Assembly (NCBI RefSeq): GCF_028641065.1
Contig: NC_073394.1
Span: forward strand, 23,622,001 to 23,686,000
Reading direction: 5' to 3'
DNA from: Leucoraja erinacea
Lineage: Eukaryota
DNA length: 64,000 nucleotides
This document shows positions 11,829 through 55,239 of the stretch, one piece after another (position 1 is the first letter of the stretch; each line of letters starts with the position of its first letter). The notes under the pieces are model-generated. The model ran no database searches. It was not told the DNA's origin and saw nothing but the letters and a program-made list of their open reading frames with translations. A program made the translations under genes and the position numbers.

Positions 11829-11883
11829 TTTGCCGACATGATGGTCCTCCAGCATCCCATCAACCCCCGCGGTGCCACCAGCC

Positions 11884-15428: not shown

Positions 15429-15596
15429 NNNNNNNNNNNNNNNNNNNNNNNNNNNNNNNNNNNNNNNNNNNNNNNNNNNNNNNNNNNNNNNNNNNNNNNN
15501 NNNNNNNNNNNNNNNNNNNNNNNNNNNNNNNNNNNNNNNNNNNNNNNNNNNNNNNNNNNNNNNNNNNNNNNNNNNNNNNNNNNNNNNNNNNNNNNN
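15429..15596. other. Assembly gap (168 N)
   Basis: Run of N. Confidence 1.
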
Positions 15597-25300: not shown

Positions 25301-27258
25301 TTTGTGTCTATCTAAAGACTAGCCATCTTGTCCAGGAAAGGCTAAATTTGACCTTTCTTGGAACACATGCTAATTTCAAGTTTATTCTAACTATCACAAT
25401 TGCTGGAATTATTTATTGCTAAATCTAGGTAATTCTTTCATAAAATAATTTTGGAATACTTCCAAACCATATTTCTGCCTTGCTTCTTTACTAAGTCACG
25501 AATAAATTCCGATCAGGCAAGCAGCAACCTTTGACTCAAATGATTATTTTCAATCTTGGCCCTCCCCTGTTAACAACTTATTCTCCTGTGCAACACCTTC
25601 CTGGTAAACTTTACTTCCTTCAAGCACCTGGGTCATTCTACCTTCTACAAACCCTGGATCATTCAAATTTCTGTTACACCATGCCATCTGACCCGCTGAG
25701 TTACTCCAGCACAAAATGCTAGAGTAACTCAGCAGGTCAGGCAGCATCCTTGGAGAAAAGGAATAGGTGATGTTTCAGGTCAAGACCCATGCCTTTTATT
25801 CATCAGCTCTGTGCTTGCTGACTCACACTGCTTCTCATAAGCAACACTTCATCTTTCATTTCAGGTCCCTCGTCTTTATAAGCTCTTGTCCTTCCACTCT
25901 TCAAGACAATTTCACTCTAATTCTGGCTTTCAACATTGATCACTTTACCATTGGTGCTAAAATCTTCAGGTGTCAATCCACCAATCTTTCCTCCTTAATC
26001 TTCTCTCCCCTGCTTTTATTTATTCCTTTGATAACCCTTCTCAGCAGATTTTGATCGTTGTTATTGATAGTCAGTGCCAAATGTTATTTATTCTCCTTAA
26101 TAAGCATCTTAGGATGTTTTACAACATTAAAAGGCATTTTTTAAAATACTGATCAAATACAAACTTGGGAAAAGAAACAGGTTTATTTTTTCCCAGTATT
26201 AAGTTTTACTATCAACAGAAAACATTAGAGGTAAAACAAGCATTAAGGTGCTGAGAAATAGAGGGAGCCCAGACAGGGTGGAAGCAGGAGAAGTCTTGAA
26301 GCTGGAATCTTTTGTCAGAACTGAAAAAAACGAATTTAACCTGAAGCAAAAACTGTTATTCTCTCGTTAGTATTGCCTGTTATTCTATCGTTAGTATTAA
26401 CCAGCATTTTCCAAAATTAATTTTCAAGAAAGATTATAGTGCTTTACATTGGAAGAGGAAGGGAAATTAAGAATTGATATACAGACTAAACACAGTGAAC
26501 TGGACACTGGTTTACAAAAAAAGTTGCAAAGTGTTGCAGTAACTCAGCGGTCATACAAGCTGTTGTTAATTATTGTTGGGGGAAACCCTAATTTCTCCAA
26601 TATTGATTTCTATAATTTCAAGTAACCCTTGTATCTCCCCTCTCTCCATCCCTACCCCCACCCAAGTCGTCTTGTTGAGTCTAATTGTCAGTAACTCGTT
26701 TTCACTTAGTTTCCGTTATCATCTTTACTTTTTTGGATATCTTTCATTCATTTGTTCTATATTTCTCGGCATCACCGTCTACATCTCTCGTTTCCCTTTC
26801 CCTTTGACTCTCAGTCTGAAGAAGGGTCGTTTCCGAAACGTCACCTATTTATTTTCTTCGGAGATGCTCTCTGACTCGCTGAGTTACTCCAGCTTTTTGT
26901 GTCTATCTTCTAATTACAGATGCAAATGGTAAAATGGCCATACAGTACTTTAGTTTCTAGATACACACACTAAGCCTACTCCTTTCCAAATATGTTAACG
27001 TTCTGTTCCTGGTTGGGAAGTGAATGCCTCAATTCGTTGACATTTTATGAATAAGATTTCACGATCCCGCTCCTTCTTTCTGTGCTCGTTTTGAGTAACA
27101 AGTGTTTGTGAAGGTCGCTATTTGCTTGTCAATAACGCTTTGGAGGGTCGGGTTATGCTGGAGATCAAAGATCCTAGAGGAGCTCCTCTAGTATCTTTGC
27201 TGGAGATGGACTCGCCGCCGTCGCCCCAGATGCCGCCGCGACACTCACCTCTCGCCAT
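19367..27258 (-). CDS. TMEM216: TMEM216 (MKS2/JBTS2 ortholog), 6 coding exons, 144 aa
   Basis: Exons 27249-27258, 24997-25013, 24589-24682, 22680-22772, 20950-21151, 19367-19385 join in frame (435 nt): MARGKPPPVLSLAPLEILLLLNSWYFAAYFVAEILFFIYKSLVLPYASANLALDLVMLFLYLGVEILRIFFGSKGNLSQRKVPLTISLVLLGPSTIMAIYYLILQTYVLRLELTINAILLVFYVFELVLYIVGLMSFSSIIAAD. Confidence 0.93.
20950..21151 (-). CDS. TMEM216: TMEM216 coding exon 5 (202 nt)
   Basis: cattag|GTTCCAAGGGG...TCAAG|gtaaga; KGNLSQRKVPL...QTYVLRLE. Confidence 0.95.
22680..22772 (-). CDS. TMEM216: TMEM216 coding exon 4 (93 nt)
   Basis: ttatag|GTCTGG...CTTTG|gtaagt; LPYASANLALDLVMLFLYLGVE. Confidence 0.95.
24589..24682 (-). CDS. TMEM216: TMEM216 coding exon 3 (94 nt)
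   Basis: caaaag|CTCTCTCTG...TAAAA|gtatgt; PLEILLLLNSWYFAAYF. Confidence 0.93.
24683..24996 (-). other. U12-type (minor) GT-AG intron of TMEM216, 314 nt
   Basis: Donor GTATCCTTTT; branch site TTCCTTAAT at 24695-24703, 12 nt from the exon boundary. Confidence 0.88.
24997..25013 (-). CDS. TMEM216: TMEM216 17-nt micro-exon (coding exon 2)
   Basis: gtattttacag|GAAAACCACCTCCAGTT|gtatcctttt; gives G-K-P-P-P-V and restores frame. Confidence 0.87.
27249..27258 (-). CDS. TMEM216: TMEM216 first coding exon (M-A-R-G)
   Basis: aagATGGCGAGAG|gtgagt in a CpG island; phase-1 donor after MxxG as recalled for mammalian MAPR-G. Confidence 0.85.
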
Positions 27259-27264
27259 CTTTGC

Positions 27265-27311
27265 CTCACCATGACAACAGCTCCGGCGACCATCCGTCAC
27301 TTCCTGGTAAC
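27265..27311 (-). promoter_or_regulatory. TMEM216 CpG promoter/5' end with RFX X-box and ETS-like site
   Basis: GTTGTCATGGTGAG (27265-27278) is X-box-like; CACTTCCTGGTAAC near 27298-27311. Confidence 0.65.
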
Positions 27312-27425
27312 CAACCCCGGTCGGTATCACGCGGGATATCACACAAAGCTCTGCTTCAAAGATCTTCGGCACGAAGTGCTGGTGGAATCAGCGGGACACG
27401 GGTAGCATCTGTGCAGTAGGAATGG

Positions 27426-27461
27426 GTGACGTTTCGGGTCGAGACCCTTCTTCAGACCCTC
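27426..27461 (-). ncRNA. Minimal hammerhead-ribozyme-like motif in a Penelope terminal repeat (representative copy)
   Basis: GGGT-CTGAAGA-A-GGGTC-TC-GACCC-GAAA-C-GTC-ACCC: CUGANGA and GAAA core, stem II, palindromic loop-less stem III. Similar copies at about 16260, 25220, 26815, 40160, 52380, 58012. Confidence 0.55.
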
Positions 27462-30184
27462 CTTCGTGTTTCGACCAGAATCGTCACCATTCCTTCTCTC
27501 CAGAGATGCTGTCCCGCTGAGTTACTCCAGCTTTTTGTGTCTCTCTTCGGTTACATACTCTCTGCCGCAGAAGTAGTTGAGGCCAGTTCATTGGCTATAT
27601 TTAAGAGGGAGTTAGATGTGGCCCTTGTGGCTAAAGGGATCAGGGAGTATGGAGAGAAGGCAGGAACAGGATACTGAGGGATGATCAGCCATGATCATAT
27701 TGAATGGCGGTGCAGGCTCGAAGGGCCGAATGGCCTACTCCTGCATCTATTTTCTATGTTTCTATGTTTAAACCTGCACCTCCTTCCTACACAAGTGTTT
27801 GGTGGACATACATGAGGAGGAGGAGGACGGGGGGGGGGTCTGACTGACAGATGCGTGGGTTAAGAGACAAGGCAGAAATGCGTGTCAGATAAGGTGTGAA
27901 ATGTAAAGACAGAGGGAGGGATATGGATAGCAGGAGACAGGAGAAGAGGGGACTAAAGCAGAGACGGGGATGTATGATGTGATCTTTTTAAACCTCGCAC
28001 TCAAATTTTATCAGCTACTATAATCAAAAGGAAAAATATTTTAAAAAACAAACAACACCGGACTAGACCTCACACAACTTGAAATTCCCTTAAATAATTT
28101 GGGGATCTTTTGATTTGGAGTGTTTTACCTGAAAAGATGATGTCAACAAATCTATTTTTCAAAATTAAATGGATGCTTAATTTGTATTTCTGGAAAGCTT
28201 TCTTTTGGTGCAAAACACCTCATTTTGAATATCACTAATTAAAGCTCCTGATATACTTCTCTACTATGAGAACATCTCAGCTGTAAACTGATTATACATG
28301 AACAAATTATTTTGTTTGTCTTGGAAAATTAGTTCAATGGTGATATTTCACTCTCTCCAGATCTGGTACAATGTGGCAACTCAGTGTACAGTGTACAATG
28401 TGTGCTCATCCAGTGTACAGTGCTGTCTTTAATAAGGCAAGACACCTTGGTTAAGTAATCCAAAATACATATTTTCAACTTTATTTCAACAATTAAACAT
28501 GTTTGAAAAGCCCAAACTGGATTAACTGATGGAATTTGCCAATGGAATGAGATGAAAACTATTTTGTAGTCTGAAGAAGGGTCGTGACCTAAAATGTCAC
28601 GTATCCATGTCCTCCAGAGATACTGCCTGACCTACTGAGTTATTCCAGCACTATGTTTTTTTACTCATGATTTCAGCATCTGCTGTTCCTTGTGTCTCTC
28701 TGTTTAGTACAATAATCCCTTATTCACTGAGGTGGATAAACGAAAAGGTAACACCTTTGGTAAACTATTAACAGCAAAAAAAAATCAATAAACTTGTTGA
28801 AAATTTTCTTTACATATTTAATACAAAACAATCACAATACAGAAATGTTCAAGAAAATAATCTATTATAAAAGTTGTCATACTAATCTGGTTCACAAAAT
28901 AAACAAATATATTTTAATACAAGAACAGTTATCATGAAATCCATCATGGAGAAAATAGCAGGACTTAAAACACATTATTCAAATTAAATTGAAGAAATGG
29001 AACTGTATATTAGGGCAAACTAAATACTGCATATCATTTTGACTCAAAAATATAAAGAGTAAAAATATTTTAAAAGTTAGGCTCGAAGTGGATAAATACA
29101 ACAACAAGCTAGAGTAAAAATTCAAAACAATTACAAATCAATTAGCTAGTTCTGAAACTTGGTCACCTGTCTCCCATGTAGTGCATTACGGTCCTCAGTA
29201 CCTTATTTGTTGTGTTATTGATGGGAACAAACACAGAGATACAGCTCATTGTGCCTTTTATAAATCAATAAATTAGAGATGGTACAAGACCTTCCCCCAA
29301 TATGTTCCCCTCCCTTACAACAACATAGCTTGCAAAATTCTAACAATCCCCTTACGATGCCATCCATGCAGCTCCTTGGAAATAAAGCAAAAAAATATTG
29401 TTGAGCATATACAGGGTACAAAGTTCTATGATGTTATTCAACTTATTTTTAAAGATGATCAGATGGAGCAGATAAATTGTGTTTTACCATTTTATTTGGA
29501 AAGGAGATAGAAATGGGCAGTATGGGGCTGGGGAACTATGACTGGAGTGGAGATAGCCAGAGATTATGAGATCCGTAACGGTTAGGAGATGATGGCTTGG
29601 CGTTAATATGTGGGGCCAGAGTCAATGGGTAGGCGTGAGGAGATATCCGATCTGGCCTCAGCCTGGTCGTCTGATTTTGTTAGAGAAGTTAATAGAAGTA
29701 GGCAATCTGGGGTTGGGTAATTTTTTGTGGGAGGTAGATAGAAGCTGGCAGAATGGGGCTGGGGAATTTTTGTGTTATTTATACAAGGTAGAAAAAATGC
29801 TGAGAAACAAATGCATGGACCTGAAACTAATTTGCACCTGAAAGAATTAGCAGTGCCACAGAACTGTTCCACACCAAAAGTATGTGCCACCAAGAGGAAG
29901 GTATGAAGTGGGGGAAAACTAGCAAAACATCTTGATTAGTGAGAGTTCAATAAAAATAATGATTGTACAGAGAAAAATATAATTAATGGCAAACGCATGA
30001 TTTAGCAGTGAAGTGCTTAGAGGATTAAGCTCTCTTAATTGCATACAACTGTCTTAAAACAATATTTTATTTTCTTCAAATATGGGTAGTATACTGAAAG
30101 TTAAATATGCTCTATATTTAGTCCAAATCTTGAACATGTCAAATACTCAATTTTTAATTTGGAGTATTGCAATACTCTGCCAAC

Positions 30185-30297
30185 TCATTTTCGAACACGG
30201 AAAAATTCATTTCGGAGCCATTCCGAGTCTTCGTATAATCGTGGGTCTCCAAGGCAAAGAGTGGTTCTTTTGTAGGAATAATAGTATAACATAGCAA
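30185..30297 (-). CDS. TMEM138: TMEM138 last coding exon
   Basis: ttcccag|TTGCTATG...AAATGA; AATAAA at 30066-30071 downstream. Confidence 0.95.
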
Positions 30298-33200
30298 CTG
30301 GGAATGAAATAAAATTAAGCAGTTTCAGGTTAGTGCATCACATTTGAAATTCTCTATATTAACAGATCGTGTGACATTCCAACATACCCATACTCAATGC
30401 AGATGCATGTTTAAACCCTTAATTGGTCAAATAAGTAGCTTCTTCAAACTCAACTTCAACCAAAAAATGTTTTGGAAGAATTATTCTATCACTGTCAACT
30501 CCCCCCAACAATTGGCAATCTCCTAATAGTTGGCATCCTTTTCAACACTGGATGCTTATTAGAACCAGTCAGGCAACTTTGGAAAATAATGTTGGCTTTA
30601 TTTTCTATGTTAATCTGCAATGTAAAGTTCCTTGATTCTAAGCAAATGCTGGTTCTCCTTTTTGCAAAGTGTTTTGTTCGACATTTAGAATGATGCTTTC
30701 AAATATTTGCTTCCTTCTAACGTAAATCACATGGGTTCCATCTTGTGCATATAATTAGGATTAATCCTGTACTTCACTCACGCCCATGTCCCTATTGCAC
30801 ACATTTTCTCTATTCAGCCCTGGGCATGCATCTGCCTGTCAACCCCCTCTCCAGAGATGCTGCCTGACCCGCTGAGTTACTTCAACACTTATGTAAAGCA
30901 GCACTCGTAGTTCCTTGTTTCTCCATTTATCTGTACCAACAATCAGTTCACATTACTTTCCTCCAGTATAGTGTTGCAAAGTATAGTTGCGAATATAATC
31001 TCAGTGATCGCAGAAATAAATCCCAAACAATACCATTACTGGACATTTTTGGACTGCTGTGTTCTTGATCTTATTTACAAACCAACATTTCAATAAAACT
31101 AATACTATGCATGGACATTGGGTGCAAAAGGCTGAGATTCAATACATTTCCTTCTGTTATGTTAGTGTTTTAATATATGTTTAGTGGCAAAGAATCCAAT
31201 TTCATGGAAAGTCATTAGCTGTGTGACAAAAGTATCTTAAAAAAGATAACCATAACAACTTTGTCTGACAGCTTTCTTACCAAACCGTTGGAAGACAAAA
31301 AGTACTTGAAGCCCATTTGTCCACACAAACCTGTGCCGATACCGCCATCGCAGATTCTGTGGTGAACAAGATTAAATAGCTTAAGTAAATAATTATGGAA
31401 ACATATACAACCACTTTCATCGACATGCAAATAGATTTAGAATTGCCTTTAACACCCTGGCTTCTGTGCATCAACTAATACGATTAGCTGTCTAAGAAAA
31501 CCAAATCCCTTTGACCTTCTTTCTCGTCCCAGACATAATTAAGAATACAAACACTGTCAACAATTGTGGTCCTGAAAATGAGTACTGATACAATGTTCTG
31601 GCTTTATCCCTACATTAGTTTTGAAGATTAAAGGAAGCGTTGTTTATTTTGAACTAAAATCTGCATCTTAACTCTAAAGAAGCATGACCAGATTCAAATT
31701 ACCCTTCTATTATGACCCTAGAGATTTGTGGTTTAGGTTTATTATTGTCACATCTACAATGAAAAGCTTTGTTTTACATGTAGATCAGATATACCATAAA
31801 TAGACCAAAGCAGTTCAAACTCAAGTACAATAGACAGTGCAAAGAGGGAAGATACAGAGTGCAGAATATAGTTCTCAGCATTGTAGTGGATCAGTTCCAT
31901 AGACAAAGTGCGATGTCCACAGTGGGGTAGAGGTAAATTAGACAGTGTCCTAGCTTATGGAGGAACCATTCGGAAACCTGATAATGGAGGAGAAGAAACT
32001 GTTCCTGATTATGTTCCTGGTTACCCAGCACATACTCACACCTACCCCAAATGGTATTACAAGCCTTATCAAATCAACCAGAACTGGACATTCATTGTCC
32101 AATTTTGTTATAACTAGATCAATAAACCAAAGATTGTTATACGTAATAAGTTATAGGGAGCTTGAGTTTTAACATATTTGAGTTATAGGGAGAGGTTGGT
32201 TAGGCTGGGTCCTTTTTCTTTGGAGAGTAGGAAGCTGAGGAGTGACCTTATTGAGGTGTGCAAGATCATAAGTGTCATGGATAAAGCATGGTCACAGTCT
32301 TTTCCACAGGGTAGAGGATTCTAAGATTGGAAGGCATAGGCTTCGAAAGGATGGGGTAAGCAGAAACATACTGATGTGAAGAGGACAAAATAATAAGCTT
32401 TAAATACATGTGGAATGTAAATACAGCTATATGTATGGAATTAATAATATGGAAGGAGGCATCACAACCTGGTGCTCAGAAAACAATCTGGCTCTGAACA
32501 CCAGGAAAACAAAAGAGCTCATTGTCGACTTCAGGAGGCACAGCACCGACTTAGCCCCCCTACACATCAACGGCGAGTGTGTGGAGAGGGTCAACACCTT
32601 CCGGTTTCTCGGTGTCCATATCGCTGCTGACATCTCCTGGACGGACAACACGACAGCGGTCATCAAGAAGGCTCAGCAGCGGCTGCACTTCCTGAGGGTC
32701 CTCAGGAAGCACAACCTGGACTCTAACCTGCTGCTGACCTTCTACCGCTCGTCCATCGAGAGCCTGCTGACATACTGCATTACAGCATGGTATGGCAGCT
32801 GCACCATGGCAGACAGGGAGAGGCTTCAGAGGGTAACCAGGACAGCGCAGAGGATCATTGGCTGCCCTCTCCCCTCCCTGATGGACATCTACACCTCCCG
32901 CTGCCTTAGCAGGGCAAAGAAGATCATCAAAGACAGCTCCCATCCTGCGTTTGGACTGTTCGACCTGCTGCCCTCTGGAAGGCGCTATAGGTGCATCAAA
33001 TCCAGGACAAACAGACTCAGGAATAGTTGCTTTCTGAGAATTATATCTACTATAAATTCAAATTCACACATGCACTGACTACACCGCCCAACACGGACTT
33101 CCATCTGTATATATGTATATATGAATGTAGCGCCGCAGAATTTGTGCACCTATTCCCCCCCCCCCCCCCATCTCCCTTCTGTTTTTTTGTTTTCTGTCTC

Positions 33201-36200: not shown

Positions 36201-36201
36201 T
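30185..36201 (-). CDS. TMEM138: TMEM138 (JBTS16 ortholog), 4 coding exons, 162 aa
   Basis: Exons 36074-36201, 33621-33792, 31281-31356, 30185-30297 (128/172/76/113 nt) join in frame: [31 protein letters not shown]...[28 protein letters not shown]...[25 protein letters not shown]...[29 protein letters not shown]. Confidence 0.96.
31281..31356 (-). CDS. TMEM138: TMEM138 coding exon 3 (76 nt)
   Basis: ccacag|AATCTG...GTTTG|gtaaga. Confidence 0.95.
32460..33300 (+). mobile_element. Rex1/Babar LINE, 5'-truncated, relatively young
   Basis: [23 protein letters not shown]...[11 protein letters not shown]...[14 protein letters not shown]...LLPSGRRYR; AATAAA plus TATC-repeat tail. Confidence 0.85.
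33621..33792 (-). CDS. TMEM138: TMEM138 coding exon 2 (172 nt)
   Basis: tttcag|CATACA...TTCAG|gtatgc. Confidence 0.95.
34753..35123. mobile_element. hAT (Charlie-like) MITE, 371 bp
   Basis: TIRs CAGTGGTTCCCAAC / GTTGGGAACCACTG; perfect 8-bp TSD CTCTATAC. Confidence 0.9.
36074..36201 (-). CDS. TMEM138: TMEM138 first coding exon (exon extends 5' to about 36276)
   Basis: aaaATGCTCCAA...TTCAT|gtaagt; acceptor gtgttttag at 36277. Confidence 0.95.
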
Positions 36202-36594
36202 TTTCCGGTGAAGTCAGTGTCAACAACACGGAGAATCAGTGGCACTATCATGCAAAGTCATGGTCTCTGCAGTAAACTAAAACACAGAGATGCATTTCAA
36301 TTACAGGATAGAAAAATGTGCACATTACATTAAAACATTATAAAAGATTCTGACTCCCCCTCCACCCAACACACTCACCACCACCAGTACTGGGTTACTG
36401 ATCTAGATTACTGGGGTTGGCAGATAATGCCTCCATCATTATATCCAAAACAGTAGTCTGATAGAGCTTAACTAATTTAGCAAGAGTACAAGGAATACTA
36501 GTTTTGGATTGGTGGCGATGAGTAAATGTACAGGTACTAATCTACACAACCCTATTCCTATCTCGACAATGGAACGCCTCAGTCTACCTCTTCC

Positions 36595-39293: not shown

Positions 39294-39661
39294 TTATACC
39301 ACTTTCTCATCCATTCCCTACACACCAGAGGGCCAATTAACATACAAATTCGCACGGCTTTGTGATGTGGGGGGAAATTTGAGCATCTCTGATACCCCAG
39401 CGGTCACAGGAAGAACCAAAGATCTTTGGGAAGAACGATCAAACTCCACACCAAAGATCTTATAGCGGAGCTCTAAGATCTTTGCTCCACACAGCACCCG
39501 AGACACGATCGAACCCGGGTTTCCAGCGCTGAGGGAGCAACACTACTGGCTGCGCCACTAAGATTCATTTCCTCTTCACTATTAAATGCACTTTCTACAA
39601 CTTGAGAACGTGGAGCTTGGTGGTGACCAAAGAGAGAGGCCAGAGCTACACCGTGGCTCAC

Positions 39662-39935
39662 CTTGTCGCCAGGCCCGCCGTCCATATGCTCGCAGCCATT
39701 CGGGCTTTCATGGAAACCGAGGACGCGACGCCATGAGCGTGAGCACGCGCATTCCCGCGCACGTCCGGCTGCACCGTCGCCAGGACCAAAGATTATAGAG
39801 GAGCTGCTCCTCTAGGATCTTTGGTCAGGACCCCTCAACAGCGGCACCAAGTGGAGAGGAGAGGAAGGGAAGGGCAGCACCAGCCGTCTGCCAAAGATCA
39901 TGGAGCGCTGTCTGCCACCCACTCGGTCACTTCCA
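39662..39935 (-). promoter_or_regulatory. TMEM138 CpG island, probable non-coding exon 1 and promoter
   Basis: CpG-dense; donor CAAG|gtgagc at 39661; imperfect X-box GTTTCCATGAAAGC at 39704-39717. Confidence 0.6.
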
Positions 39936-41409
39936 AAGATCATAGATCTATGGTGTTTAAGAAGGAACTGCAGATGCTGGAAAATCGAAGGCACACAAAA
40001 ATGCTGGAGAAACTCAGCGGGTGCAGCAGCATCTATGGAGCGAAGGGACATCTATAGATCTATGGTCTTTGGTCACTTCTGCAGCACTCAAAGGAAGGTA
40101 GACACAAACAGCTGGAGTAACTAAGCGGGACAGGCAGCATCTCTGGAGAGAAGGAACGGATGACGTTTCGGGTCAAGACCCTTCTTCAGACCGGTTAGGG
40201 AGACGGGGAAACGAGGGATATAGACGATGATGTGGAGAGATAAAGAACAATGAATGAAAGATATGCAAACAAGTAACGATGACAAAGGAAACAAGCCATT
40301 GTTAGCTGTTTGTCGGGTGAAAACGAGATGCTATTGCGACTTGGGGTGGGGATAGAAAGAGAGGGAATGTCCGCTACCTGAAGTTAGAGAAATCAAGTTA
40401 TACCACTGGGCTGTAAGCTGTCCAAGCGAAATATGAGATGCTGTTCCTCCAATTTGCGTTGGGTGAAAGCACTCAAAGGGCACTAGAGGAGCACTAAAAC
40501 ACAAAATGCGTAGGAAGGAACTGCAGATGCTGGTTTACACCGAAGATAGACACAAAGAGCTGGAGTAACTCAGTGGGTCAGACAGCGTCTCTGGCATAAT
40601 ATAATAAAGATTCTAGTGAGTGTAAAGGGAACACCTATTCCTTCGCTCCATAGATGCTGCCTCACCCGCTGAGTTTCTCCAGCATTTTTCTCTACCTTCG
40701 ATTTTTCCAGCATCAGCAGTTCATTCTTAAAGAAATAAAATTTGGTGATTTTAAAGATGCTGTTGGAAACGGACATAGTACATTTAAAGGGAGGTTGGCA
40801 ATAGGACCTCAATAACCCATATGCTTAACTCTCAGTAAAATGGTGCGCCGAGGAGCAGGAGACCAGCAGGAACCATGGAAGGTGAGCAGTGGGAACAAAT
40901 TATCAGCTTTTAGGATATCCAAACAACGGGAGAGCAGGCAGAATGTATAGAATAAGGAATCTAGATGCTGGCTTCCAAAGGAAAGATACAAAATACTGGA
41001 GTAACTCAGCCTGAAGAAGGGTCCCAATTCAAAAATGTCACATATCTATGTTCTCCAGCTGTACTGCCTGACCCGTTGAGTTACTCCAGCACTCTTGTGT
41101 CCTTAAACGAGATAGCAGATTACGGTGTATACTCTGTCACCAATACACACCAAATACAGCCGCACCAGGTCACGCAGCACAATTTTGCATTATATAAAGT
41201 TGGAGAAACGTTTCAAGTGGGGACTCTTTGTCACGCTGATGGAGTGGAGAGGAGATAGCTGGTAGAAAGTGATGAGGGGCAATTATCGGGCAAGAGCTGA
41301 TAGGTGGATCCAGGTGCGGAATTTTGATTGACAGATGAGTCAGTGGAGAGGAGATGGGAGATAAGGAGCAGGAAGGGTGGGAAAGATGAGTGAAATGGAT
41401 CAAAGGATC

Positions 41410-43617: not shown

Positions 43618-43955
43618 CTATTCTTTTGGAAGTGGTATTCCGAGAGCTGTGTGATTCTGCACATTTCTGGCTTTTTCTACATCATCTGCGGAGCAGATGT
43701 CTTCGAGAAACAGATTTGCTAAGTTACTCAAACGTTTGTTTTTGGACAGAGAAAAGCGTAGCATACACTGAATAACTGGCACTGCTGTAATTTCTTGTTG
43801 GGACAAAGGTGTCGTCAGGTACATTAATGTGGTAATTGCAGATAGCACAGTGTCTTCATTAGAGCTGGATAAGCAGTCCAGCACTGCCTGAACTCCATTG
43901 TTCTGTAAAATATATTCTTTGTTCTGTTTCTCTAGACACAAGTTACAGAGGCCAC
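43618..43955 (-). CDS. ARMC7: ARMC7 last coding exon
   Basis: ttccctcag|GTGGCCTCTGT...GAATAG. Confidence 0.95.
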
Positions 43956-46900
43956 CTGAGGGAAAATGAAAATATTATCAAATCTAGGGTCTATGAAAAT
44001 AAGGGAATAATATACAACAATTATGGGTAAGTATACAATGAATGCCAACCCTCATTAAATATGAATTTAATTGTCAAATGTTCCATAACTCCCTTCTCAT
44101 TTAAAAAAAAATGGGACATACAGTGCCCTCCATAATGTTTAGGACAAAGACCCATAATTTATTTAGTTGCCTCTGTACTCCACAATTTGAGATTTGAAAT
44201 AGAAAAAAATCACATCTGGTTAAAGTGCACATTGTCAGATTTTAATAAAGGCCACTTTTATACATTTTGGTTTCACCATGTAGAAATTACAGCTGTGTTT
44301 ATACATAGTCACCCCCGATTTCAGGGCACCTTAGGCTTACCAAGATCAACTGTTTGGAGCATCATTAAGAAGAAAGAGTGCACTGGTGAGCTTACTAATC
44401 ACAAATGAATTCTGAAGTGTGCAGACATATCCTATTTGCTCAAATTCAAACAAATTCCTCAAATCTCATTGGCCAGCGGTTCATTCTACAGCAAGACAAT
44501 GATCCCAAACATACTGCTAAAGCAACAAAGGAGTTTTTCAAAGCTAACTAATATATGGTCAATTCTTGAATGGCCAAGTCAATCACCCGATCTGAACCCA
44601 ATTGAGCATGCCTTTTATATGCTGAAGAGAAGACTGAAGGAGACTAGCCCCCACAAAAGGATAAGCTAAAGATGGCTGCAATACAGGCCTGGTTTCTTCT
44701 TTCAGGTCCTTATGCTATATAGTGGCTCGCAACTGCTTAACACATCGTTGCGCTATTGGAGTGTGCAAGGTCTGCAATAGTCCATGGATTATTAGCATTA
44801 GGTGTAGCATTGTCTGGGTCTGTGTACCACAGTCACAGGTTGTTGTACCTTCGATGTAGTCCCATTTGTGCATTGTCACCCTTGACTCCCCGATCCCGGT
44901 TCACAGTCGGTTGAGACATCTCCAGTGTTTGTTCATCAGCACCTGGTGGTAAGCGCTCTGCTGCTAGTATGCCCATCTTGGTGGAATTAGGGACAGTCTG
45001 TTCTTCCACATCTGGAAGCGAGCTTCAGTTGGTGTTGTTTCCAATGGGGTGACGCTGGTCAGGAAACTCGTGGGATTTTAACCGCCTAGGAGGGGGCACA
45101 TGATTGTGTAATGGGTGTCTATCGTCTGACAGGCCTGGCAGAGAATAATCAGAGAAACCACCCAGCAACTGGTGATGTGCATGAATCACAGACTTCAAGC
45201 AGTCATTGCATGCAAAGGATATGCAAAAAAATACTAAACATGACTACTTTCATTTTCATGATATTGCTGTGTCCCAAACATTATGGTGCCTTGAAATGGG
45301 GGTGCCCCACCGTGCCCCAACAGCAATGTCATGAAAATGAAAGTAGTCATGTTTAGTATTTTTTTGCATATCCTTTGCATGCAATGACTGCTTGAAGTCT
45401 GTGATTCATGCACATCACCAGTATAAACACTGCTGTGATTTCTACATGGTGAAATCAAAATGCATAAAAATGGCCCTTATTAAAATCTGACTATGTGCAC
45501 TTTAACCACATGTGATTTTTTTCTATTACAAATCTCAAATTGTGGAGTACAGAGGCAAATAAATAAATGATGGGTCTTTGTCCCAAACATTATGGAGGGC
45601 ACTGTACATTAGAAAACCTTGCCACCAAATTAACATTGTGAGGACAATAATATGACTTACTAAACACACATTCATGGCTCCACAAGAAAATCTAGAGACT
45701 GAACGATACAAATTGTCTTTTAGAAAGAGTGGCTATCACACTCCAAGGCTTGCAAACTGACAACCAATCATTTTACATTGCCATTAATGCAGTTTAGTAA
45801 ACGAGTCTTGAAAACAAATTGATCGGGACAGTTATAAGACCCATACCATCTAGAATTTTTTTCCCAGTAATAATCTTCTACGTTCATATGACAAGAATTG
45901 CCCTACACTTGAGTCACCGCTCAACTGCCTCCTGAGATTTAAAGTTGATTCACAACAAGCCTCCTGCAGATCGATATGACATATTTCATGATTTGGAACT
46001 CAGGGCCACCGTAACATGTTGGGTAATCAATCTTTTGTGGAGCAGATGCCCATGTGTGGATTCTATTAAGGGTCATCCACTGTCTTTGAAGGACGTCAAT
46101 GTCAAGTACCTGTCTGTTAAATCTGTCCTCTGAGTTATATGCATCCCTCTTCAATAACAAAATGTAAGTAAGTAATTTTATTGGCCAAATATTAACATAC
46201 AAGGAATTTGCCTTGGTGCCCCGCCCACAAGTAACAACATGACATACAGTGACAGTTACGAATGACTCAGAAAAAACTAAACATTATTAATAATAAAACA
46301 TTAAAGATAAAACACCATTGATCAAGCATGTGAACCAACAAAATACCAGATCAAAGGGAGGCTACAGATTTTGGGCTTTTGGGTAGAGTAACTACTCGTG
46401 GATAACTGTTTTTATGTCTGGCTGTGGCAGCTTTGACAATCCAGAGTCGCCTTCCAGATGGAAGTGATTCAAAGAGTTTGTGGCCAGGGTGAGAGGGGTC
46501 AGAGATGATCTTGCCCGCTCGCTTCCTGGCCCTTGCAGTGTACAGTTCATCAATGGAGGGAAGGTTGCAGCCAATAACCTTCTCTGCTGATCGGACGATT
46601 CGCTGCAGCCTCCAGGTGTCGTGCTTGGTGGCTGAACCAAACCAGACCATGATGGAAAAGGTGAGAACAGTCTCTACGATGGCCGTGTAGAATTGGACCA
46701 TCATTGCCTGTGGCAGATTGTGCTTCCTCAGCTGCCATAGGATGTACATCCTCTGTTGTGCCTTTTTGATTGTGGAGTCGATGGTAGACCCCCATTTAAG
46801 GTCCTTGGAGATGATGGTTCCCAGGAACTTAAAAGACTCCACAGATGTGACTGTGGTGTTGTTGATGGTGAGTGGGGCGAGGAGAGGGGGAGCTCTCCTA

Positions 46901-49900
46901 AAGTCTACAATCAATTCCAGTGTCTTAAGAGTATTGAGCTCTAGGTTGTTGCAACGGCACCAGGACGCCAGCTGTGACACTTCCTGTCTGTAGGCAGATT
47001 CATCTCCATCCTGGATCAGTCCAATCCGGGTTGTGTCGTCCGCAAACTTGAGAAGCTTGACAGAGGTGTCTGTGAAGGTGCAGTCGTTGGTGTAGAGAGA
47101 GTAGAGGAGAGGAGAGAGTACGCAGCCTTGTGGTGCTCCTATGCTGAGCGTTTGCGGGTCCGAGATGTGCTTTCCCAGCCAAACATGCTGCTTCCTGTCT
47201 GTCTGGAAGCAGGTGATCCACCGACAGAGGGGTTCAGGCACAGCCAACCCGGAAAGTTTGGAGTGTAGTAGCTCTGGCACAATGGTGTTGAATGCAGAGC
47301 TAAAATCAACAAACAGGATCCTCGCATAGGTCCCCTGGCGGTCTAGATGCTGTACGATGAAGTGCAGGCCCAGGTTGACTGCATCATTCACAGATCTATT
47401 GGCCCGATATGCAAACTGCAGAGGGTCTAGCAGGGAGTTTGTGAGGAATTTCAAGGAATTTGCCTTGGTGCTCCGCCCACAAGTAACAACATGACATACA
47501 GTGACAGTTACGAATTACACAGAAAACACTAAACATTAATAATAATAAAACATTAATGATAAAACACCATTGATCAACCATGTGAACCAACAAAATACCA
47601 GATCAAAAGGAGGCTACAGATTTTTGGCTGTTGAGTAGAGCAACTACTCGTGGATAAAAACTGTTATGTCTGGCTGTGGCAGCTTTGACAGTCCGGAGTC
47701 GCCTTCCAAAGGGAAGTGATTCAAAGCGTTTGTGGCCAGGGTGAGAGGGGTCAGGGATGATCTTGCCCGCTCGCTTCCTGGTCCTTCCAATGTACAATAA
47801 GTAGTTTATAATCGATCTCTGGGTCAGTTCTTGAGCAGTGAAATTAAAGGGACAGGTCGGAGTATCTGTTAAATATCGCAATCATCGGATGTTGCTGGGT
47901 TAATGGAATGAGCTGGCAGAGGGGTAGTTGAGGCAGATACTATAACAAGAAGACAATTGGACAGGTAAATTGATAGGAAAGGTTTAGAGGGATATGGGCC
48001 AAACATGGGCAGGTGAGACTAGTGTAGATAGGGCCGAAGGGCATGTTTCCGTGCCATATAACTATGATCTACAACACAGAAAACCCAACCATGACCTACA
48101 TCATTGAACATCAAATAAATAGGTGGATATAAAAAAAAACGACATTTCATTGCAATACGTGCAGTGTGGTATTTTTCCCAATATACAAATGTTTGTCGTT
48201 AAATCTCTAAGAAAGTATGAATAAAAGTATGTGCTGCTCTAACAGGTTAGCCTGGAATGTACAACATTTGCAGGATCAATATAATCCGACTACAGTACAG
48301 GCAGTGACATTGCTAATAACAAACATTTCTTTTCTTACCGATTCCAAATTCTACAAATCTTTCATTTTCTTCTGTAAGCATGTCCAGAAACAGATCAATG
48401 ACTTGCAACTGTCGAAGATACTGATAGTTACTGGGATCATATGCAAAATTAGCCAGGTTTGCCAGAACTTGCTCCTTTGAATCTGAGAAGTTAACAATAA
48501 AACACTGAGCATGAATGCACATTTGATATATAAAGCCATCCTTCAATTGGTTTCTTTGTGAGTATTAAGTGATTAACATATTATTAAACAAGGAACAGTA
48601 TTCTGTAAAAAAAACCTCAACAATGCTTTCTTAGTGAAAATTCCTTAAGGTACTGCTTTATATCCCATTCTACATGGATCATAATCTTATCAAGTGTCTA
48701 TGGTTCAATGTTCCAGTGACACTTACAGGTACGAAGGAACTGCAGATGCTGGTTTACACCGAAGGTAGACACAAAATACTGGAGTAACTCAGTGGGACAA
48801 AAAGCATGTCTGGAGAACATGGATAGGTGACATTTCAGGTTGGGATCTTTCTTCAGATTGATTATAGCAGGGGGAAATCTGGAAGAGAGGTGGGGCAGGA
48901 CAAAGCCAGGCAAGCGATTGATAGATAAAATGAAGGGGGGGGGGGGGGGGGAGTGATTTGATTGGCAGATGGTTGGACAAAGGCTAGAGATGAAAATTAA
49001 AAAAATGAGAGATAAGGAAAGAAGAGGTGAAATGTTAAGCCAGATCAAGGAATAATGATGGAAGTGGGCAGGGGAGGGGGTGGGGTGCGAGGGGGTAGAA
49101 TTGGGGGGGGGGGGGGGGGGGGGGGAAAGGGAGAAATTAGTCTACATCCAGTTGGGAAACATGAACGAGAGGGGGAAACGGAGGTGTGTGGTTAGGTTGG
49201 GGCTTGTTTACCTAAAATTGGAGAATTCAGTGTTTATATCGAAGGGTTGTAAGCTACCCAAGTGGAATGAGGTGCTGTTCCTCCAGTTTGCATGTGGCTT
49301 CATTTGGGCAATGGAGGAGGCCCAGGGCAGAATGGTCAGTATGGCGTGTGGCCTCATTTGGGCACGGGGCAGAATGGTCAGTATGGGAATGGGAAGAGGT
49401 GTTAAGAAGGTTAGCAATCGGGAGATCCAAATAGCCTTAGTGGACCGAGTGCAAGTGTTCAGCAAAACAGATGACTAGTCTACGCCCTTTCCCATTCCCA
49501 TACTTTGTGTCTTGTTCGGTAAGCCAACATCTGCAGTTCTTAGTGTCTACAATAAAGGATGACAAATAATTTTGCCCCAGAAGAACAGGAAGTAAAATTA
49601 GTATGGGTGGAGACAAGCGATAAAAAGAGATAAAAAACAGGGAATTGTTTACATGACTCCTTAAAGCTGTACTGTTGGAGATAAAATTAAACACAAAAAT
49701 AGAATTTCTAGCAGAGATAATATAATGATGGGAGACTTTAATATTCATATGGACTGGGGAAATCAAATTGACAAAAATACTTGAGGATGGTTTCACAGAA
49801 TAATTTGGGACAGATAGTAACTATCCAAGGCGCGTTTGCAATTTAATAATAACAGATCCCTGAGGGAAAAGTTACCACAAGATAGAAGAATTGCGCATTC

Positions 49901-51010
49901 AGTTGATGAGTAACATAATTTAATCAGAAACTAGAGTCTTGAGTTTAAGTAATGCCAGTCACATAGAGAACTGGAGTGATTTAAGCAAGGTAGACTGAGA
50001 AATGTGATTAAATAGTTTGAAACTAGATAAACAATGCTGAAGTATTGAATGCAGTTCTGTTTGACACACGATAGGTAGCATATGATTTTGCTTAAGAAAG
50101 TAAAAAGGAAATTCGTGGGGATGTTACGGAGGGTGTAGGAAGAACTGCAGATGCTGGTTTCAACCAAAGATAGACACAAAATGTTGGAGTAACTCAGCAG
50201 GACAGGCAGCATCTCTGGAGAGAAGGAATGGATGGCGTTTCAGGTCGAGACCCTGCTTCAGTTTGAACCCGAAACATCACCCATTCCTTCTCTCCAGAGA
50301 TGCTGCCTGTCCCTCTGAGTTACTCTAGCATTTACTAGGATAGGACGTTAATTATGGAGCAAGAGAGTGAAATTAGGCTGGGCTTGTTTTCCACTGGAGC
50401 AGGGAACGCTGAGGGATGACCTGATCAAGGTTTATCAAATTTATAAGAGGTATAGATAACGTAGAAAGTCGGAATCTTTTCCGCATGGTAGGAGTTTCAA
50501 GAACAAAAGGCATAATTTAAAAGTGAGAGGTAGAAGATTTAATTGTGGCCCTATGGGTAAGTTTTTTTTTCACACAGTTGTCTGGAATGCAATGCCGGAG
50601 GAAGTGATGGAATCAGATACAATTACCACATTTAAAAGACATTTAGATTGGCATGGTAGAGATGGAAATAGTCTTAATGTGGACAAATAAGATTACTGTA
50701 GATGTACAAAAAGGCTAGCATGATTGAGGTGAGCTGAAGGGCTCATTTCCATGCTGTACTACTCTAACACACCAAAGGCAATTTAAAAAGAGTGTCAGGG
50801 GTTATGGGGAGCTATGATTGAATGGCAAAATAGCCTAATTCTGCTCCTATAACTTATATGAACATGAAATATTTCATAATTCACAAGGATCACCATCCTA
50901 CACTTACCTTGACTGTCAGTATCTTGAAATTCAGTAACAAGAGTTTGCAAGTAATCAAACCGATCTTGTCCCTGAGACTTACTTTGTAAATACCGACTGG
51001 AGGTGGCCAT
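43618..51010 (-). CDS. ARMC7: ARMC7 armadillo repeat protein, 3 coding exons, 194 aa
   Basis: Exons 50908-51010, 48339-48482, 43618-43955 join in frame (585 nt): ...[52 protein letters not shown]...VEFGIGGLCNLC...[12 protein letters not shown]...[12 protein letters not shown]. Confidence 0.95.
44121..45604 (+). mobile_element. Tc1/mariner transposon, internally deleted
   Basis: TA-flanked long TIRs starting CAGTGCCCTCCATAATGTTT; transposase remnants QQDNDPKH and [15 protein letters not shown]. Confidence 0.92.
44693..45128 (-). mobile_element. Non-LTR retroposon 3' fragment (Ingi/I-like) inserted in the Tc1
   Basis: 10-bp TSD ACAGGCCTGG (44683-44692, 45129-45138); NRL*TG...MHKWDY...CDCG...QTMLHL; GAAAGAAGAA tail. 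Confidence 0.65.
46180..47790 (-). mobile_element. Two head-to-tail Rex1/Babar LINE 3' ends (46180-47450 with a 367-aa RT ORF; 47452-47790)
   Basis: DPLQFAYR...[12 protein letters not shown]...[13 protein letters not shown]...KFADDT; the 3' UTR is duplicated. Confidence 0.9.
48339..48482 (-). CDS. ARMC7: ARMC7 coding exon 2 (144 nt)
   Basis: ttctcag|ATTCAAAG...AATCG|gtaaga. Confidence 0.95.
50908..51010 (-). CDS. ARMC7: ARMC7 first coding exon (acceptor at 51031)
   Basis: caaATGGCC...TCAAG|gtaagt. Confidence 0.9.
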
Positions 51011-52639
51011 TTGAATTGAACTCCGTGCAGCTGCATACAAAAGAGAAAATTGATCACAAACCCAAATTAAGTCAAAACCATCTAATTGTCATATGAGCTG
51101 AGAATAGAATATTTAAATTATTATTTGCTACAGCTCATACATTAACCTGGCAATACAACAAACAACTATACAATAAACAACACTATACAATAAATGGATA
51201 GCAGTATGAACATTTAGTGCAACATAAATCGAAATATACATAATTCTTAGAATCTGTGATACAGAATTGATGGAATGTCCAGAATCATGGATGAATTTCA
51301 AAATAAGAGGGAGGCCATTCATGACAGAGATAAGAAAAAGGTAATGAATCTTTGGAATTCTCATCCAGGATTTGTGGACTTGGTCAGGTCAGATTCAGAC
51401 ATCATAAGATTTGATTTGTTTTGTTTTGTTTCAGTGAAAAGCTTTGTTTTTAATGCTATCCAATCAGATAATATTTGAATACAATCAAATCAATTAAAAT
51501 AGGTTGTGCAAAGGGGAAGATACAGAATATAGTTCTAGGTATTGTAGTGCATCAGTTCCAGAGATGAAGTCAAATGTCTGCAATGGGGTAGAGGTGGATC
51601 GGACACGACCCCGGCTGATGGAAGGACCTTTCCATCATTCTCTGCCTGATAACAGCTGTCCCTGGATTTTGCTGCAAGAGACAGACCTGGCCCAATCTAC
51701 AAATACATGAAAATGCAATTTTTAATTTTATTTTTTAAATATAGGTTTTTTCCCTCTAGCTTCACTGGCAATTATGTTTAAAACTAGTGGGAAAGGATAT
51801 TCAGGTTGAATCAGAGATCGTACAGGCCACATTGAGAGCACCAAAAGCAGTAAAAAAAACATTGGTCTGAAACATCATCTGTCCATTTCCTTCACAAATG
51901 ATGCCTGACCCACTGAGTTCCTCCAATATATGTTTTTTTTTGCTCAGGAATTCCAGCATCTAGTTTCGTATACACTTTCAAAAATCTAGTGTACAAATAC
52001 TTGAAGGATTACAGGGAAAGAGGGGATGGGAATAACTGGATGATGCTAGTAAAAACTATGAAAGGTTGGATGGGGTGAGTGGCCTTTCTCCTTGGTTGAA
52101 GCAATTTTATAACCTGATAAAAGATTGGGACATGGAAGGCCATTTGACTTTACTGGCCTGACCTTTGTTTTATGACTATTATCTTAGTCTGGGGGAAATA
52201 TGTTTGGCATCTCCTCCAAAAGTCATCCAATCCATACAGATCAAGCTTCATTTCTGTGCAATGTAATGATAAGAACCCAGGGATGATTCCACCAGGGTTA
52301 AACGGGCACTAAAAAAAAATACAGAGTGCTCGAGTAACTCAGCAGGTCAGGCAATATCCTTGGAGAGAAGGAATGGGTGGCGTTTCGGGTCGAGACCCTT
52401 CTTCAGACTCAACTATTAAAGACAGTTTACCCAAAAGGAGACAAAGTGCTGGAGTAACTCAGCGGGTCAGGCAGCATACCTCAAGAACATGAATAGGTGA
52501 TGTTTTGGGTCGAGACCCTTCAAATTGATTAAGAAGGCTAAAGAAGGGACAGGAACCGAAACATCACCTATCAATGTTCTCCACGAAAGCTGCCTGACCC
52601 CCTGAGCACTTTGTCTCCTTTTGTGGAGACCAATGTAGC

Positions 52640-52930
52640 CAATCTCAGCAGCCTGGGCGCTGGAAGTTAGAGGGAGTAAATACCCAGCGCAATACAGGAT
52701 GCAGACGGCGGACACATCCTGATTCCCACCAAAGATCCTATAGCAGAGCTATAGGATCTTTGATTCCCACCACTCACCTCACGGACTCGTCACCACTTCC
52801 AAAGATTATAGAGGAGCTCTTCTAATATCTTTGACCACTTCTGCTATTATTAGGATCTTTGCTTCATCATCTCCGTCCGGCGCCCCTAGTTACTCCTCCA
52901 AAGGCAACGACATCTACCGACCGGGAGGTA
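52640..52930 (-). promoter_or_regulatory. ARMC7 CpG-rich 5' end with probable non-coding exon 1
   Basis: Donor GAG|gtgagt at 52777; GGAAGTG ETS-like motif; local CpG enrichment. Confidence 0.55.
52730..52762. mobile_element. Ultra-short palindromic insertion with 8-bp TSD (type copy of the CAAAGAT family)
   Basis: ATTCCCAC-[CAAAGATCCTATAGC-AGA-GCTATAGGATCTTTG]-ATTCCCAC. Other copies at 27166, 39417, 39452, 39787, 39934, 52800, 53332, 53497. Confidence 0.88.
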
Positions 52931-53244
52931 TTCTCGACAACTTCCATCAAAATGGTAAACCAGCATGTGCTGTTCCTTGTTTCCCTCTTCAACATTGAAA
53001 ATAGAAAATGTCGTAAAGTATCTGTGGAAAAATAAATAGTTAACTCATGCCGAGCTTTCTGTCCAGTTTTTTATATTGAAGAAAAAGCAACTATATTAAG
53101 TATAACCCAATGAGCGGTCATTTACGTGAAAGGTTTCCTCTCTGTCTCACTTTGTCTGACCTGCTGATTATCTCCAAAATGTTCTGTTTTATAGCAACTG
53201 TATTAGTCTAATTCACTAAGTATAGATGGAACAATAGAACATTA

Positions 53245-53441
53245 TGCCCATGTCCCACTTACGAAACCTGAACGGAAACCTCTGGAGACTTTGCGTCCCA
53301 CCCAAGGTTTCCGTGCGGTTGCAGGTAGGGACAAAGATCCTATATCTTTGGGTAGGGAGACTGACAAAAACCTCCGGGAACCGCACGGAAACCTTGGGCT
53401 CCAGAGGTTTCCGTTCCTGTTTCCTAAGTGGGACAGGGGCA
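53245..53441. mobile_element. Fold-back MITE, PIF/Harbinger-like
   Basis: TIR TGCCCATGTCCCACTTA / TAAGTGGGACAGGGGCA; near-palindromic throughout; flanked by TTA/TTG. Confidence 0.7.
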
Positions 53442-55239
53442 TTGCTGAACAACAAGGGCGGTCATGGTGGCGCAGCGGTAGAGTTGCTGTTACAGCCAAA
53501 GATCTTAGAGCAGAGCTCTGCTGTAAGATCTTTGGTCACAGCGAACGCAGCGCCGATCGATCCAGGTTCGATCCTGACTACGGAGTTTGTACGTTCTCCA
53601 CGGATCTTCGGTTTCTTCCCACACTCCAAAGACATACGTACAGGTTTGTAGGTTAATTAGTTTGGTAAATGTAAAAAAATGTCTCTAGTTGGGTGGTAGG
53701 AGGAGTAGGTGTTAATATGCGGGAGTGCCAATGTGTAACATTAATATAAATTCAACTGTTCAACTTCCTGTGTCCTACATTGAAATGTCAACTGCAGCAG
53801 TAGATTTACATGCCTGATATAAATTTGAACTGCTTGGAAACTTGAAATGTCATTGACAAAAATTAACAGTGAAAATGAAAGTTGTTGAAATTGTTGTGTG
53901 TACTATAGTTCATTTTCTCTTCACAAACTTTTTAATGTTTATTTATGATGTTATCTATTGTCTACTGTGTTTACAAACCTGTTGTGCTGCTGCACATAAT
54001 AATTTAATTATTCCGTTTCAGTACATATGACAATTAAGAACTCTTGACTCTTGAGAGAGTCTTGACTCTTTACTTTGGACTTTAGAGATACAGTGCGGAA
54101 GCAGCGAGTCCGCCCACTGAATCCATGCTGACCAGCAATCATCCCATACACCAACACTATCCTACACATTATGGACAATTTTATTGAAGCCAATTAACCT
54201 ATAAACCTATACGTCTTTGGAGTGTGGAAGGAAACCGGAGCACCCGAAGAAAACCCCTGTGGTTACAAGGAGAACGTACAAACTCTATACAGACAGCACC
54301 CATAATCAGGATTGAAGCAGGGTCTCTGGTGCTATAAGGCAGCAGCTCTACCACTGTGCCACTGTGCCCCCCTTAACTATCACAAGGAAAGTGACACTCG
54401 AGCTGTGACAATGAGACTTAAATTATCTAAAGATGCACAAGAGAACAAACCCTTTACTATTATTAATATGGTCTCACCAGATTTCATTCTCAAGGAAGTT
54501 GTTGCCCAAATGAGCACTTTCAAAGGATCTCTTTCAGGGAGTATTTTGATGATGTTTCAAGATTGTTGAGATGACCAAGTTTCAGGTTCAAATACATTTG
54601 ATGACACGTTTTGAAAATCTTTTATCTGATTGTTTGACCAACAAAAGCCACACAGGAGTGATTCAATGTTTCAAGGTGCCGGAGAAGCTGATGAATGATT
54701 GGGGAAAAGGGAAAAAGCAAGCAGGGAAGTGCATCACATTTCAAGTGTCTTTAACATTTGAGCCTGTAATATGTGCCTGCACTATCTGCAAGAAAGGCAG
54801 TTGTGCAAAAATTAAACTCCAACCGCACACATTATTGTAGTATGACAATATAAATGTTTTTTTTTCTCTATCTCGCTATAAAAGAGTATATCCGCACCCC
54901 AAATGTCATATTCCCGACGCCACAAAATTTTAGTTCAAATTTAATTCTGGAGACAAAATGTCTGCACCTTCCAATAAACAAAGTCAATCTTCTGCAATAT
55001 AACATGTAAATCAGCTGAACATTACCTTCAAAAATAAATCTGTATAGTGTTCCCATAAAGAGAAATGTTGTTCCACTTCAGAGGCAGAGTAATCCACTAT
55101 GTTTAATATAGCCTGACTGTACAAAACAGAGTACTTGCCGTCTGTTCATAACCACCAGAGCAGAGAAATATAAAAGTAAAAGGTCAGTGCTTGCCAGATG
55201 TTCCATGATTGTATTTCTGATCTTTGCAGATAAAAAATA

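Follow-up and report, generated by a model that had tools for sequence, protein, structure and literature searches.

How a set of short, near-palindromic sequences came to lie beside three genes of the skate Leucoraja erinacea is the question raised by a 64-kb stretch of its genome (contig NC_073394.1, positions 23,622,001 to 23,686,000; hereafter the window). The sequences begin with CAAAGA and end with TCTTTG, and they are found near the predicted promoters of TMEM216, TMEM138 and ARMC7. An initial annotation proposed that they are a promoter-targeting micro-MITE (miniature inverted-repeat transposable element) or the collapsed remnant of a hAT transposon. The present analysis indicates that they are real, promoter-clustered insertion scars, and that they are most likely excision footprints of a P-type transposon rather than a hAT micro-MITE. 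Throughout, "promoter" denotes the vicinity of a sequence-predicted first-exon donor.

An insert family with 8-bp repeats

Direct inspection confirmed the coordinates and the 8-bp direct repeats of all nine inserts that had been listed initially (Table 1). The pair CAAAGA...TCTTTG occurs 831 times in the window at any spacing, and exactly nine of these pairs are bounded by 8-bp direct repeats that mismatch at no more than one position, compared with ∼0.3 expected by chance. When 6-bp inverted ends bounded by 8-bp repeats were sought without reference to any motif, 13 matches were returned, nine of which were members of the CAAAGA family. The mean number of such matches in 40 block-wise dinucleotide shuffles was 3.0 (maximum 9), and CAAAGA-ended elements arose in none of the 40. 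A 14-nucleotide (nt) arm pattern, picked from the insert copies themselves, matched 19 times against 2.2 expected. The direct repeat has a length of exactly 8 bp. Among 10 copies, this length gave zero or one mismatch, and lengths of 6, 7, 9 and 10 gave two to nine. Mismatches are present at 3 of the 80 repeat positions, and thus the insertion events are not brand new.

The count of at least nine copies held, but two one-armed copies had been overlooked, a clean one at 39892-39907 and a tentative one at 52842-52861, giving a total of 11 (nine two-armed, one clean one-armed and one tentative one-armed). Both were detected in a profile scan, and the tentative copy was not recovered in a one-sided scan. 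Every arm starts with CAAAG. The longest copy, at 39934-40071, is an insert with 8-bp repeats as annotated, but its 138 bp comprise a 26-bp palindrome and a nested 99-bp repeat that has a 13-bp direct repeat of its own; the 99-bp piece is a later retro-insert into the palindrome. Single CAAAGAT sites at 3338, 11600 and 27357, and a CAAAGA site at 4507 whose repeat has one mismatch (∼1.3 expected by chance), were dropped as candidates lacking an arm or a repeat. A degenerate right-arm-like stretch with a AGCTCTGCT core at 27344-27368, ∼100 bp upstream of the TMEM216 donor and without a flanking repeat, is possibly an older scar.

The two-armed copies measure 12, 19, 26, 33, 33, 34, 34, 37 and 38 bp, which amounts to seven length classes among nine copies, and no pair of copies is identical. 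The arms are 6-19 nt in length, or up to 21 nt under a microhomology model in which they anneal at AGCT. There is a ceiling at ∼17-21 nt, none of the 11 copies extending beyond ∼21 nt per arm. The junctions between arms are variable, with copies of at least 33 bp mostly joined at AGCT and the shortest copies at GATC. Over seven copies, arms from within a copy showed 8 mismatches, compared with 12.7 for random arm pairs (p = 0.015), which suggests several related parent subfamilies.

Three of the copies (39417, 39452 and 53497) lie within SINE-like repeats, which we take to be short interspersed nuclear elements. Filled and empty repeats were aligned after removal of the inserts. The paralogous SINE-like copy at 54186-54378 has a single copy of each target and no insert, and empty paralogous sites were found for all three testable copies. 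That the paralogous sites are empty implies that the inserts are insertions. The alignments include a 2-base slip at the 53497 site and a gap in one paralog at the 39452 site. Beyond the SINE-like repeats, the paralog search gave no match in four of six regions, for which paralogs are lacking. No Rfam match and no tRNA gene (ARAGORN) was found in the window.

The targets are non-random and resemble GT....AC; after symmetrisation of the 10 sites, 13 of 20 half-sites have G at position 1 and 12 of 20 have T at position 2. Taken with the exact 8-bp repeats and the empty paralogous sites, this preference upholds the transposon origin that had been proposed.

Table 1. Positions and anatomy of the inserts, with the first-exon donors of the four genes.
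Feature	Position	Strand	Length and arms	Flanking repeats	Setting or remark
Insert 27166-27199	27158..27207		34 bp, 17+17 nt	CTGGAGAT	TMEM216 intron 1, 49 bp from donor
Insert 39417-39428	39409..39436		12 bp, 6+6, perfect palindrome	GGAAGAAC	within SINE-like repeat; paralog is empty site
Insert 39452-39484	39444..39492		33 bp, about 19+14	CTCCACAC	same SINE-like repeat as 39417 insert; paralog is empty site
Insert 39787-39823	39779..39831		37 bp, 18+1+18	GYCAGGAC	126 bp 5' of predicted TMEM138 first donor
One-armed copy 39892-39907	39884..39915	+	16 nt, second arm absent	CYGTCTGC: CCGTCTGC and CTGTCTGC	
Insert 39934-40071	39926..40079		26-bp palindrome, 13+13, one mismatch	GTCACTTC	split by later nested insertion
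Nested repeat	39955..40053		99 bp	13-bp direct repeat, 39942-39954 and 40054-40066	common repeat, 13 other BLAST hits in window
Insert 52730-52762	52722..52770		33 bp, about 19+14	ATTCCCAC	15 bp into predicted ARMC7 intron 1
Insert 52800-52833	52792..52841		34 bp, 17+17	ACCACTTC	predicted ARMC7 5' untranslated exon
Tentative one-armed copy	52842..52861	-	20 nt, 3 nt apparently duplicated	4 of 8 repeat bases recur	adjoins repeat of 52800 insert
Insert 53332-53350	53324..53358		19 bp, about 12+7	GGTAGGGA	within unrelated inverted-repeat element 53244-53442
Insert 53497-53534	53489..53542		38 bp, 19+19	GTYACAGC	within SINE-like repeat; paralogs are empty site
TMEM216 first coding bases	27249..27258	-			M-A-R-G start; donor 27248
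TMEM138 predicted donor, non-coding first exon	39656..39667	-			first intron base 39661; sequence prediction
ARMC7 predicted donor, non-coding first exon	52772..52783	-			first intron base 52777; start codon 51010
Second PF09799 gene, predicted first-exon donor	11807..11825	-			donor 11812; promoter without insert

Clustering at predicted promoters

The distance from each of the 11 copies to the predicted donor of TMEM216, TMEM138 or ARMC7 is 15-720 bp, with four copies in intron 1 and seven on the 5' side. This agrees with the initial statement that every copy falls within ∼0.8 kb of a first-exon donor. The nine qualifying pairs among the 831 are all near the three donors, and the two added copies are found there as well. 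When the three clusters were placed at random as rigid units, 378 of 1,000,000 placements were equally close. The suggestion that promoters are targeted is consistent with this clustering, its scope being one window. The related suggestion that the inserts mark transcription start site (TSS) positions fits three of the four predicted promoters, but not the spread of up to 720 bp or the four copies in intron 1. Protein support for the first-exon donor is available for TMEM216 (27248) only, the other three donors being sequence-predicted.

The fourth promoter, which carries no insert, has the lowest CpG ratio (0.50, compared with 0.65-0.75 for the others). A plain preference for GC or CpG was rejected because seven of the nine CpG-rich 500-bp windows are not near any of the four donors and contain no insert; composition alone is therefore insufficient to account for the promoter pattern. 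The window contains seven copies or fragments of the SINE-like repeat, and inserts are present only in the two that lie within 0.8 kb of a donor, so that insert-bearing and empty copies provide a small internal control.

An assembly gap of 168 N at 15429-15596 adjoins a CpG-rich stretch that contains a TGACGTCA motif (∼15757) and is not tied to a gene, and it is possible that this gap hides a further copy. Just upstream of the TMEM216 start, two motif-like sites are present at 27298-27320, which we take to be X-box-like and ETS-like, as would be anticipated for a ciliary gene. The repeats GTCACTTC (39926) and ACCACTTC (52792) resemble part of the ETS-like motif, and some insertions may have hit ETS-like sites.

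Weighing the possible origins

The inserts are probably fixed end-joining scars left by excision of a promoter-targeting cut-and-paste transposon of the P-superfamily type. The data show the initial step, namely insertion near promoters, at GT....AC-like targets that were cut with an 8-bp stagger. By analogy with the Drosophila P element, the transposase would then, on excision, cleave one strand at the boundary of the element and its complement ∼17-21 nt inside, such that a single-stranded copy of the tip of the terminal inverted repeat (TIR) stays on each flank. End joining would fuse the two tails, often via the short palindromes AGCT or GATC, or would lose one of them. The product would be repeat, arm, arm and repeat, with an insert of 12-38 bp that differs from site to site. 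Scars this small may have been tolerated and become fixed at sites that lost long insertions by purging or excision, and they are probably immobile and mostly neutral.

The ends of P-superfamily elements presumably conform to the motif CANRG, which insert ends beginning with CA fit, as do hAT ends; a P-type end motif is quoted as YARNG in PMC2820524. The initial annotation had treated target-site duplications (TSDs) of 8 bp with CA...TG ends as a hAT signature, a view that is not supported, because P-superfamily elements have both (PMC10983969, PMC7776569, PMC3698922). An 8-bp TSD is established for P elements (PMC7776569, PMC3698922), and P transposase's exceptionally long staggered cut of 17 nt, described as distinctive (PMC7776569), means that 17 nt of TIR are kept on each flank. 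Table 1 of Chan, Yu and McVey (2010) lists P repair junctions in which, between two copies of the 8-bp target, stretches of up to 17 nt stand on either side of microhomology or filler (PMC2895639). The skate inserts share with these footprints the 8-bp target repeats around two inverted TIR tips that are joined bluntly, by microhomology or by filler, a similar length range, and the occurrence of asymmetric and nearly one-sided products (PMC2895639). Two copies are exactly 17+17, and the clean one-armed copy at 39892-39907 keeps both repeats. The lengths of the nine inserts and of 44 two-sided P junctions (median 30, range 7-44; PMC2895639) gave p = 0.25 in a Kolmogorov-Smirnov (KS) test and p = 0.75 in a Mann-Whitney test, which at n = 9 indicates compatibility only. 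Comparison of the targets with the P core GTCCGGAC gave agreement at 38 of 80 positions versus 19.8 expected (0 of 20,000 draws). Targeting of TSSs is tight for P and Mu and broader for the hAT element Ds (PMC7337890). The TIR of Izanagi, a medaka element that its authors classify as P-like, has a 10-mer in common with one insert arm (shuffle p = 0.003).

Several observations weigh against this assignment. Neither a P/THAP transposase nor a parent element was found among the 368 open reading frames (ORFs) scanned with Pfam, in this window only. The target test also scores hAT motifs (Hermes, 29 versus 14.9; hobo, 32 versus 20.1; NTNNNNAN, 12 versus 5.1). The fly P target preference is a 14-bp motif with outer AT...AT around an 8-bp core (PMC2577343), and that outer AT...AT was seen, by eye, at 2 of 20 half-sites. 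A non-significant KS test is weak support, and the table used for it is from Rad51 (spn-A) mutant flies, with deletion and long-microhomology rows left out (PMC2895639). The Izanagi match was post hoc and involved one of three TIRs tried; the arms showed no similarity to the ends of zebrafish Pdre2 (p = 0.82) or Drosophila P (p = 1.0). Some arms, at 18-19 nt, or up to 21 nt if annealed at AGCT, exceed the 17 nt of Drosophila, and the junction model is circular in that its consensus arms come from the same copies. Selection against long promoter insertions could yield a size ceiling under any mechanism, and the clusters might have arisen by local hopping instead of separate hits. Finally, two architectures (17+17 and 19+14) recur, as MITE subfamilies would.

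This recurrence (30 of 34 positions matching between the 17+17 copies and 29 of 33 between the 19+14 copies) fits a self-mobile micro-MITE of 33-38 bp, in essence two TIR tips that a P or hAT transposase would mobilise in trans, from which shorter forms would arise by later deletion between GATC or AGCT repeats in the hairpin. Six of the nine two-armed copies fall within 33-38 bp, all nine have TIRs and 8-bp repeats, and deletion between GATC repeats would yield the 12-bp form. We nevertheless regard such an element as unlikely. MITEs are of uniform size and high identity (PMC1562414), whereas seven length classes and no identical pair are observed here, and one copy retains intact repeats around a single arm; later deletion may explain that arm, 9 of the 11 copies being two-armed. 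Drosophila P requires internal binding sites beyond a TIR of 31 bp, and non-autonomous copies of this element measure 0.5-2.8 kb (PMC7776569); 34 bp would appear too short for synapsis of two ends. The non-coding P derivatives of Anopheles (P-MITEs, PMC1562414) and Drosophila (BuT5, PMC3698922) have 8-bp TSDs (8-9 bp for BuT5) but, unlike the inserts, P-MITEs keep ∼100 bp per parent end and BuT5 is ∼1 kb, both being repeated as whole units. A self-mobile micro-MITE is thus disfavoured, and the other half of the initial proposal, a collapsed remnant, comes close to the footprint interpretation.

hAT elements such as Ac/Ds, Tol2 and TcBuster, and hAT MITEs, resemble the inserts in their 8-bp TSD, short TIRs and some TSS preference, but their excision forms hairpins on the flanks and gives small indels (PMC3878927, PMC3499496), which should leave no TIR ends. 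TIR tips are kept at every insert site, unlike in hAT footprints, a difference that applies only if the inserts are excision products. A hAT origin would instead require abortive gap repair of an Ac-type element, in which short stretches of both ends were templated by the sister chromatid and then fused through microhomology, with only the shortest products surviving at promoters. We consider this improbable, more so than a micro-MITE, even though it would accommodate the 8-bp repeats, the CA...TG ends, the enrichment of NTNNNNAN (12 of 20 motif positions, with both positions in 3 of 10 targets) and the TSS preference of TcBuster (PMC3499496). Gap repair is expected to give broad lengths, in conflict with the arm ceiling and with the lack of a long copy in 64 kb, and the central TA of the Buster-type target nnnTAnnn is present in none of 10 targets. 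No hAT domain was detected among the 368 ORFs.

The anatomy of the scars implies a long staggered cut and does not specify the enzyme. Footprints of another superfamily with an 8-bp TSD that makes its own long staggered cut, such as Zisupton or some unclassified DNA element of fish, would fit this anatomy, and would also suit arms that may be longer than 17 nt and show no similarity to Pdre2 or Drosophila P ends. A long stagger is described as distinctive of P (PMC7776569, PMC2895639), and both TSS targeting and the Izanagi word favour P; we rate this as the least probable of the three rival origins. Mutator, another TSS targeter, was rejected because it is described with a 9-bp TSD and long TIRs; a 9-bp repeat model of the inserts gave 5-9 mismatches.

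Among characterised P-type systems, the Drosophila footprints differ from the skate inserts in that they arose in the laboratory, as products of repair at a single site in mutant flies (PMC2895639); the inserts are natural, diverged (3/80), spread over many sites in a vertebrate, and different in their ends, with arms of possibly 19-21 nt. Izanagi is non-autonomous, has an 8-bp TSD, CAA ends and the 10-nt word, and sits 69 bp from a TSS, but it is 1.3 kb long with 27-bp TIRs and a degenerate THAP domain, and the shared word lies deeper in the TIR (PMC2820524). No excision scars of Izanagi are described in the available part of that paper. Zebrafish Pdre2/THAP9 is likewise a vertebrate P-type system with an 8-bp TSD and is excisable, but its 13-bp TIR has at most a 4-nt word in common with the arms (PMC10983969). 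Excision by zfTHAP9 is reported to give larger flanking deletions, and forward transposition was not seen (PMC10983969).

The Pfam scan covered 368 stop-free ORFs (30+89+128+121) with length cut-offs of 42-66 amino acids by region and ORFs containing N left out; ORFs of at least 45 amino acids in the window number 618. A long parent element with the insert ends was absent among the 831 end pairs. The scan yielded only retroelement domains and a DDE_3 transposase fragment at 44409-44666 (+), located in an ARMC7 intron, with an E value of 2e-5 that is below the curated cut-off. This fragment, which we assume to be Tc1/mariner-like, is not the expected partner.

Meaning of the scars and other features of the window

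P footprints are known from the fly laboratory, and their natural build-up at vertebrate promoters would be new. In the literature covered, mostly outside subscription journals, no description was found of the CAAAGA insert family or of fixed P footprints at vertebrate promoters, and no paper among the matches listed combined CAAAGATC with all three transposon terms. An existing Dfam or Repbase entry is possible, and the scars may be short enough for repeat libraries to miss.

DNA-transposon footprints are normally a few bases in length and hard to see. That the skate scars are recognisable means that past transposition into promoters can be counted from one genome, vanished elements included. 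Extrapolation from 11 copies at three of four promoters in 64 kb suggests many thousands of scars genome-wide. The broader proposal, that fixed P-type excision scars number in the thousands at promoters throughout the skate genome, in many cases with several at one promoter, is one on which we stop a little short of an even balance. If true, the scars would form a fossil record, readable from sequence, of where germline Pol II promoters lay, together with a natural collection of end-joining products; a vertebrate P-type transposase would have cut with a long stagger (17-21 nt) and targeted TSSs in vivo; and hairpins would have remodelled 5' untranslated regions and core promoters. The scars contribute roughly 40-280 bp per promoter. 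They would point to a promoter-seeking vertebrate transposase, allow a test of whether vertebrate P-type transposases have the long stagger and TSS targeting of the fly enzyme, and offer presence/absence markers for skate phylogeny. The minimum-energy RNA structure of the predicted ARMC7 5' exon did not fold the 34-bp hairpin, and hence a function in RNA structure is not claimed.

Two further inverted-repeat elements were noted. The 199-bp element at 53244-53442, which hosts the 19-bp scar, has 44-nt outer arms that are 91% complementary and is present as a single copy in the window; it looks to us like a Harbinger-type MITE. A 255-bp palindromic element at 45168-45422 (87% self-complementary, intronic in ARMC7) has unrelated ends, and its inner 161-bp part has TGCATGCA on either side. 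Broken retroelement pol fragments with reverse transcriptase and RNase H domains occupy 1-2064 and 60471-63400, the latter also containing integrase domains. Just upstream of the ARMC7 5' exon, on the opposite strand, an ATG followed by a GT dinucleotide at 52945-52960 (+) could be a divergent first exon; the 89 ORFs in 52.5-60.6 kb gave no Pfam hit.

The window contains four genes, all on the minus strand: ARMC7, TMEM138, TMEM216 and a second PF09799 gene. The names given initially to the first three were borne out by Pfam and protein comparison (TMEM138 corresponding to PF14935), and the last TMEM216 exon is 99% identical to that of Amblyraja radiata and at most 94% identical to those of rays and sharks. 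The second PF09799 (TMEM17/216/80 family) gene, at 3839-11830 (-), is directly downstream of TMEM216, its last exon is 48% identical, and it is probably TMEM80 by our reckoning. Given the order ARMC7, TMEM138, TMEM216 and paralog on one strand, the TMEM138-TMEM216 head-to-tail pair is present in skate.

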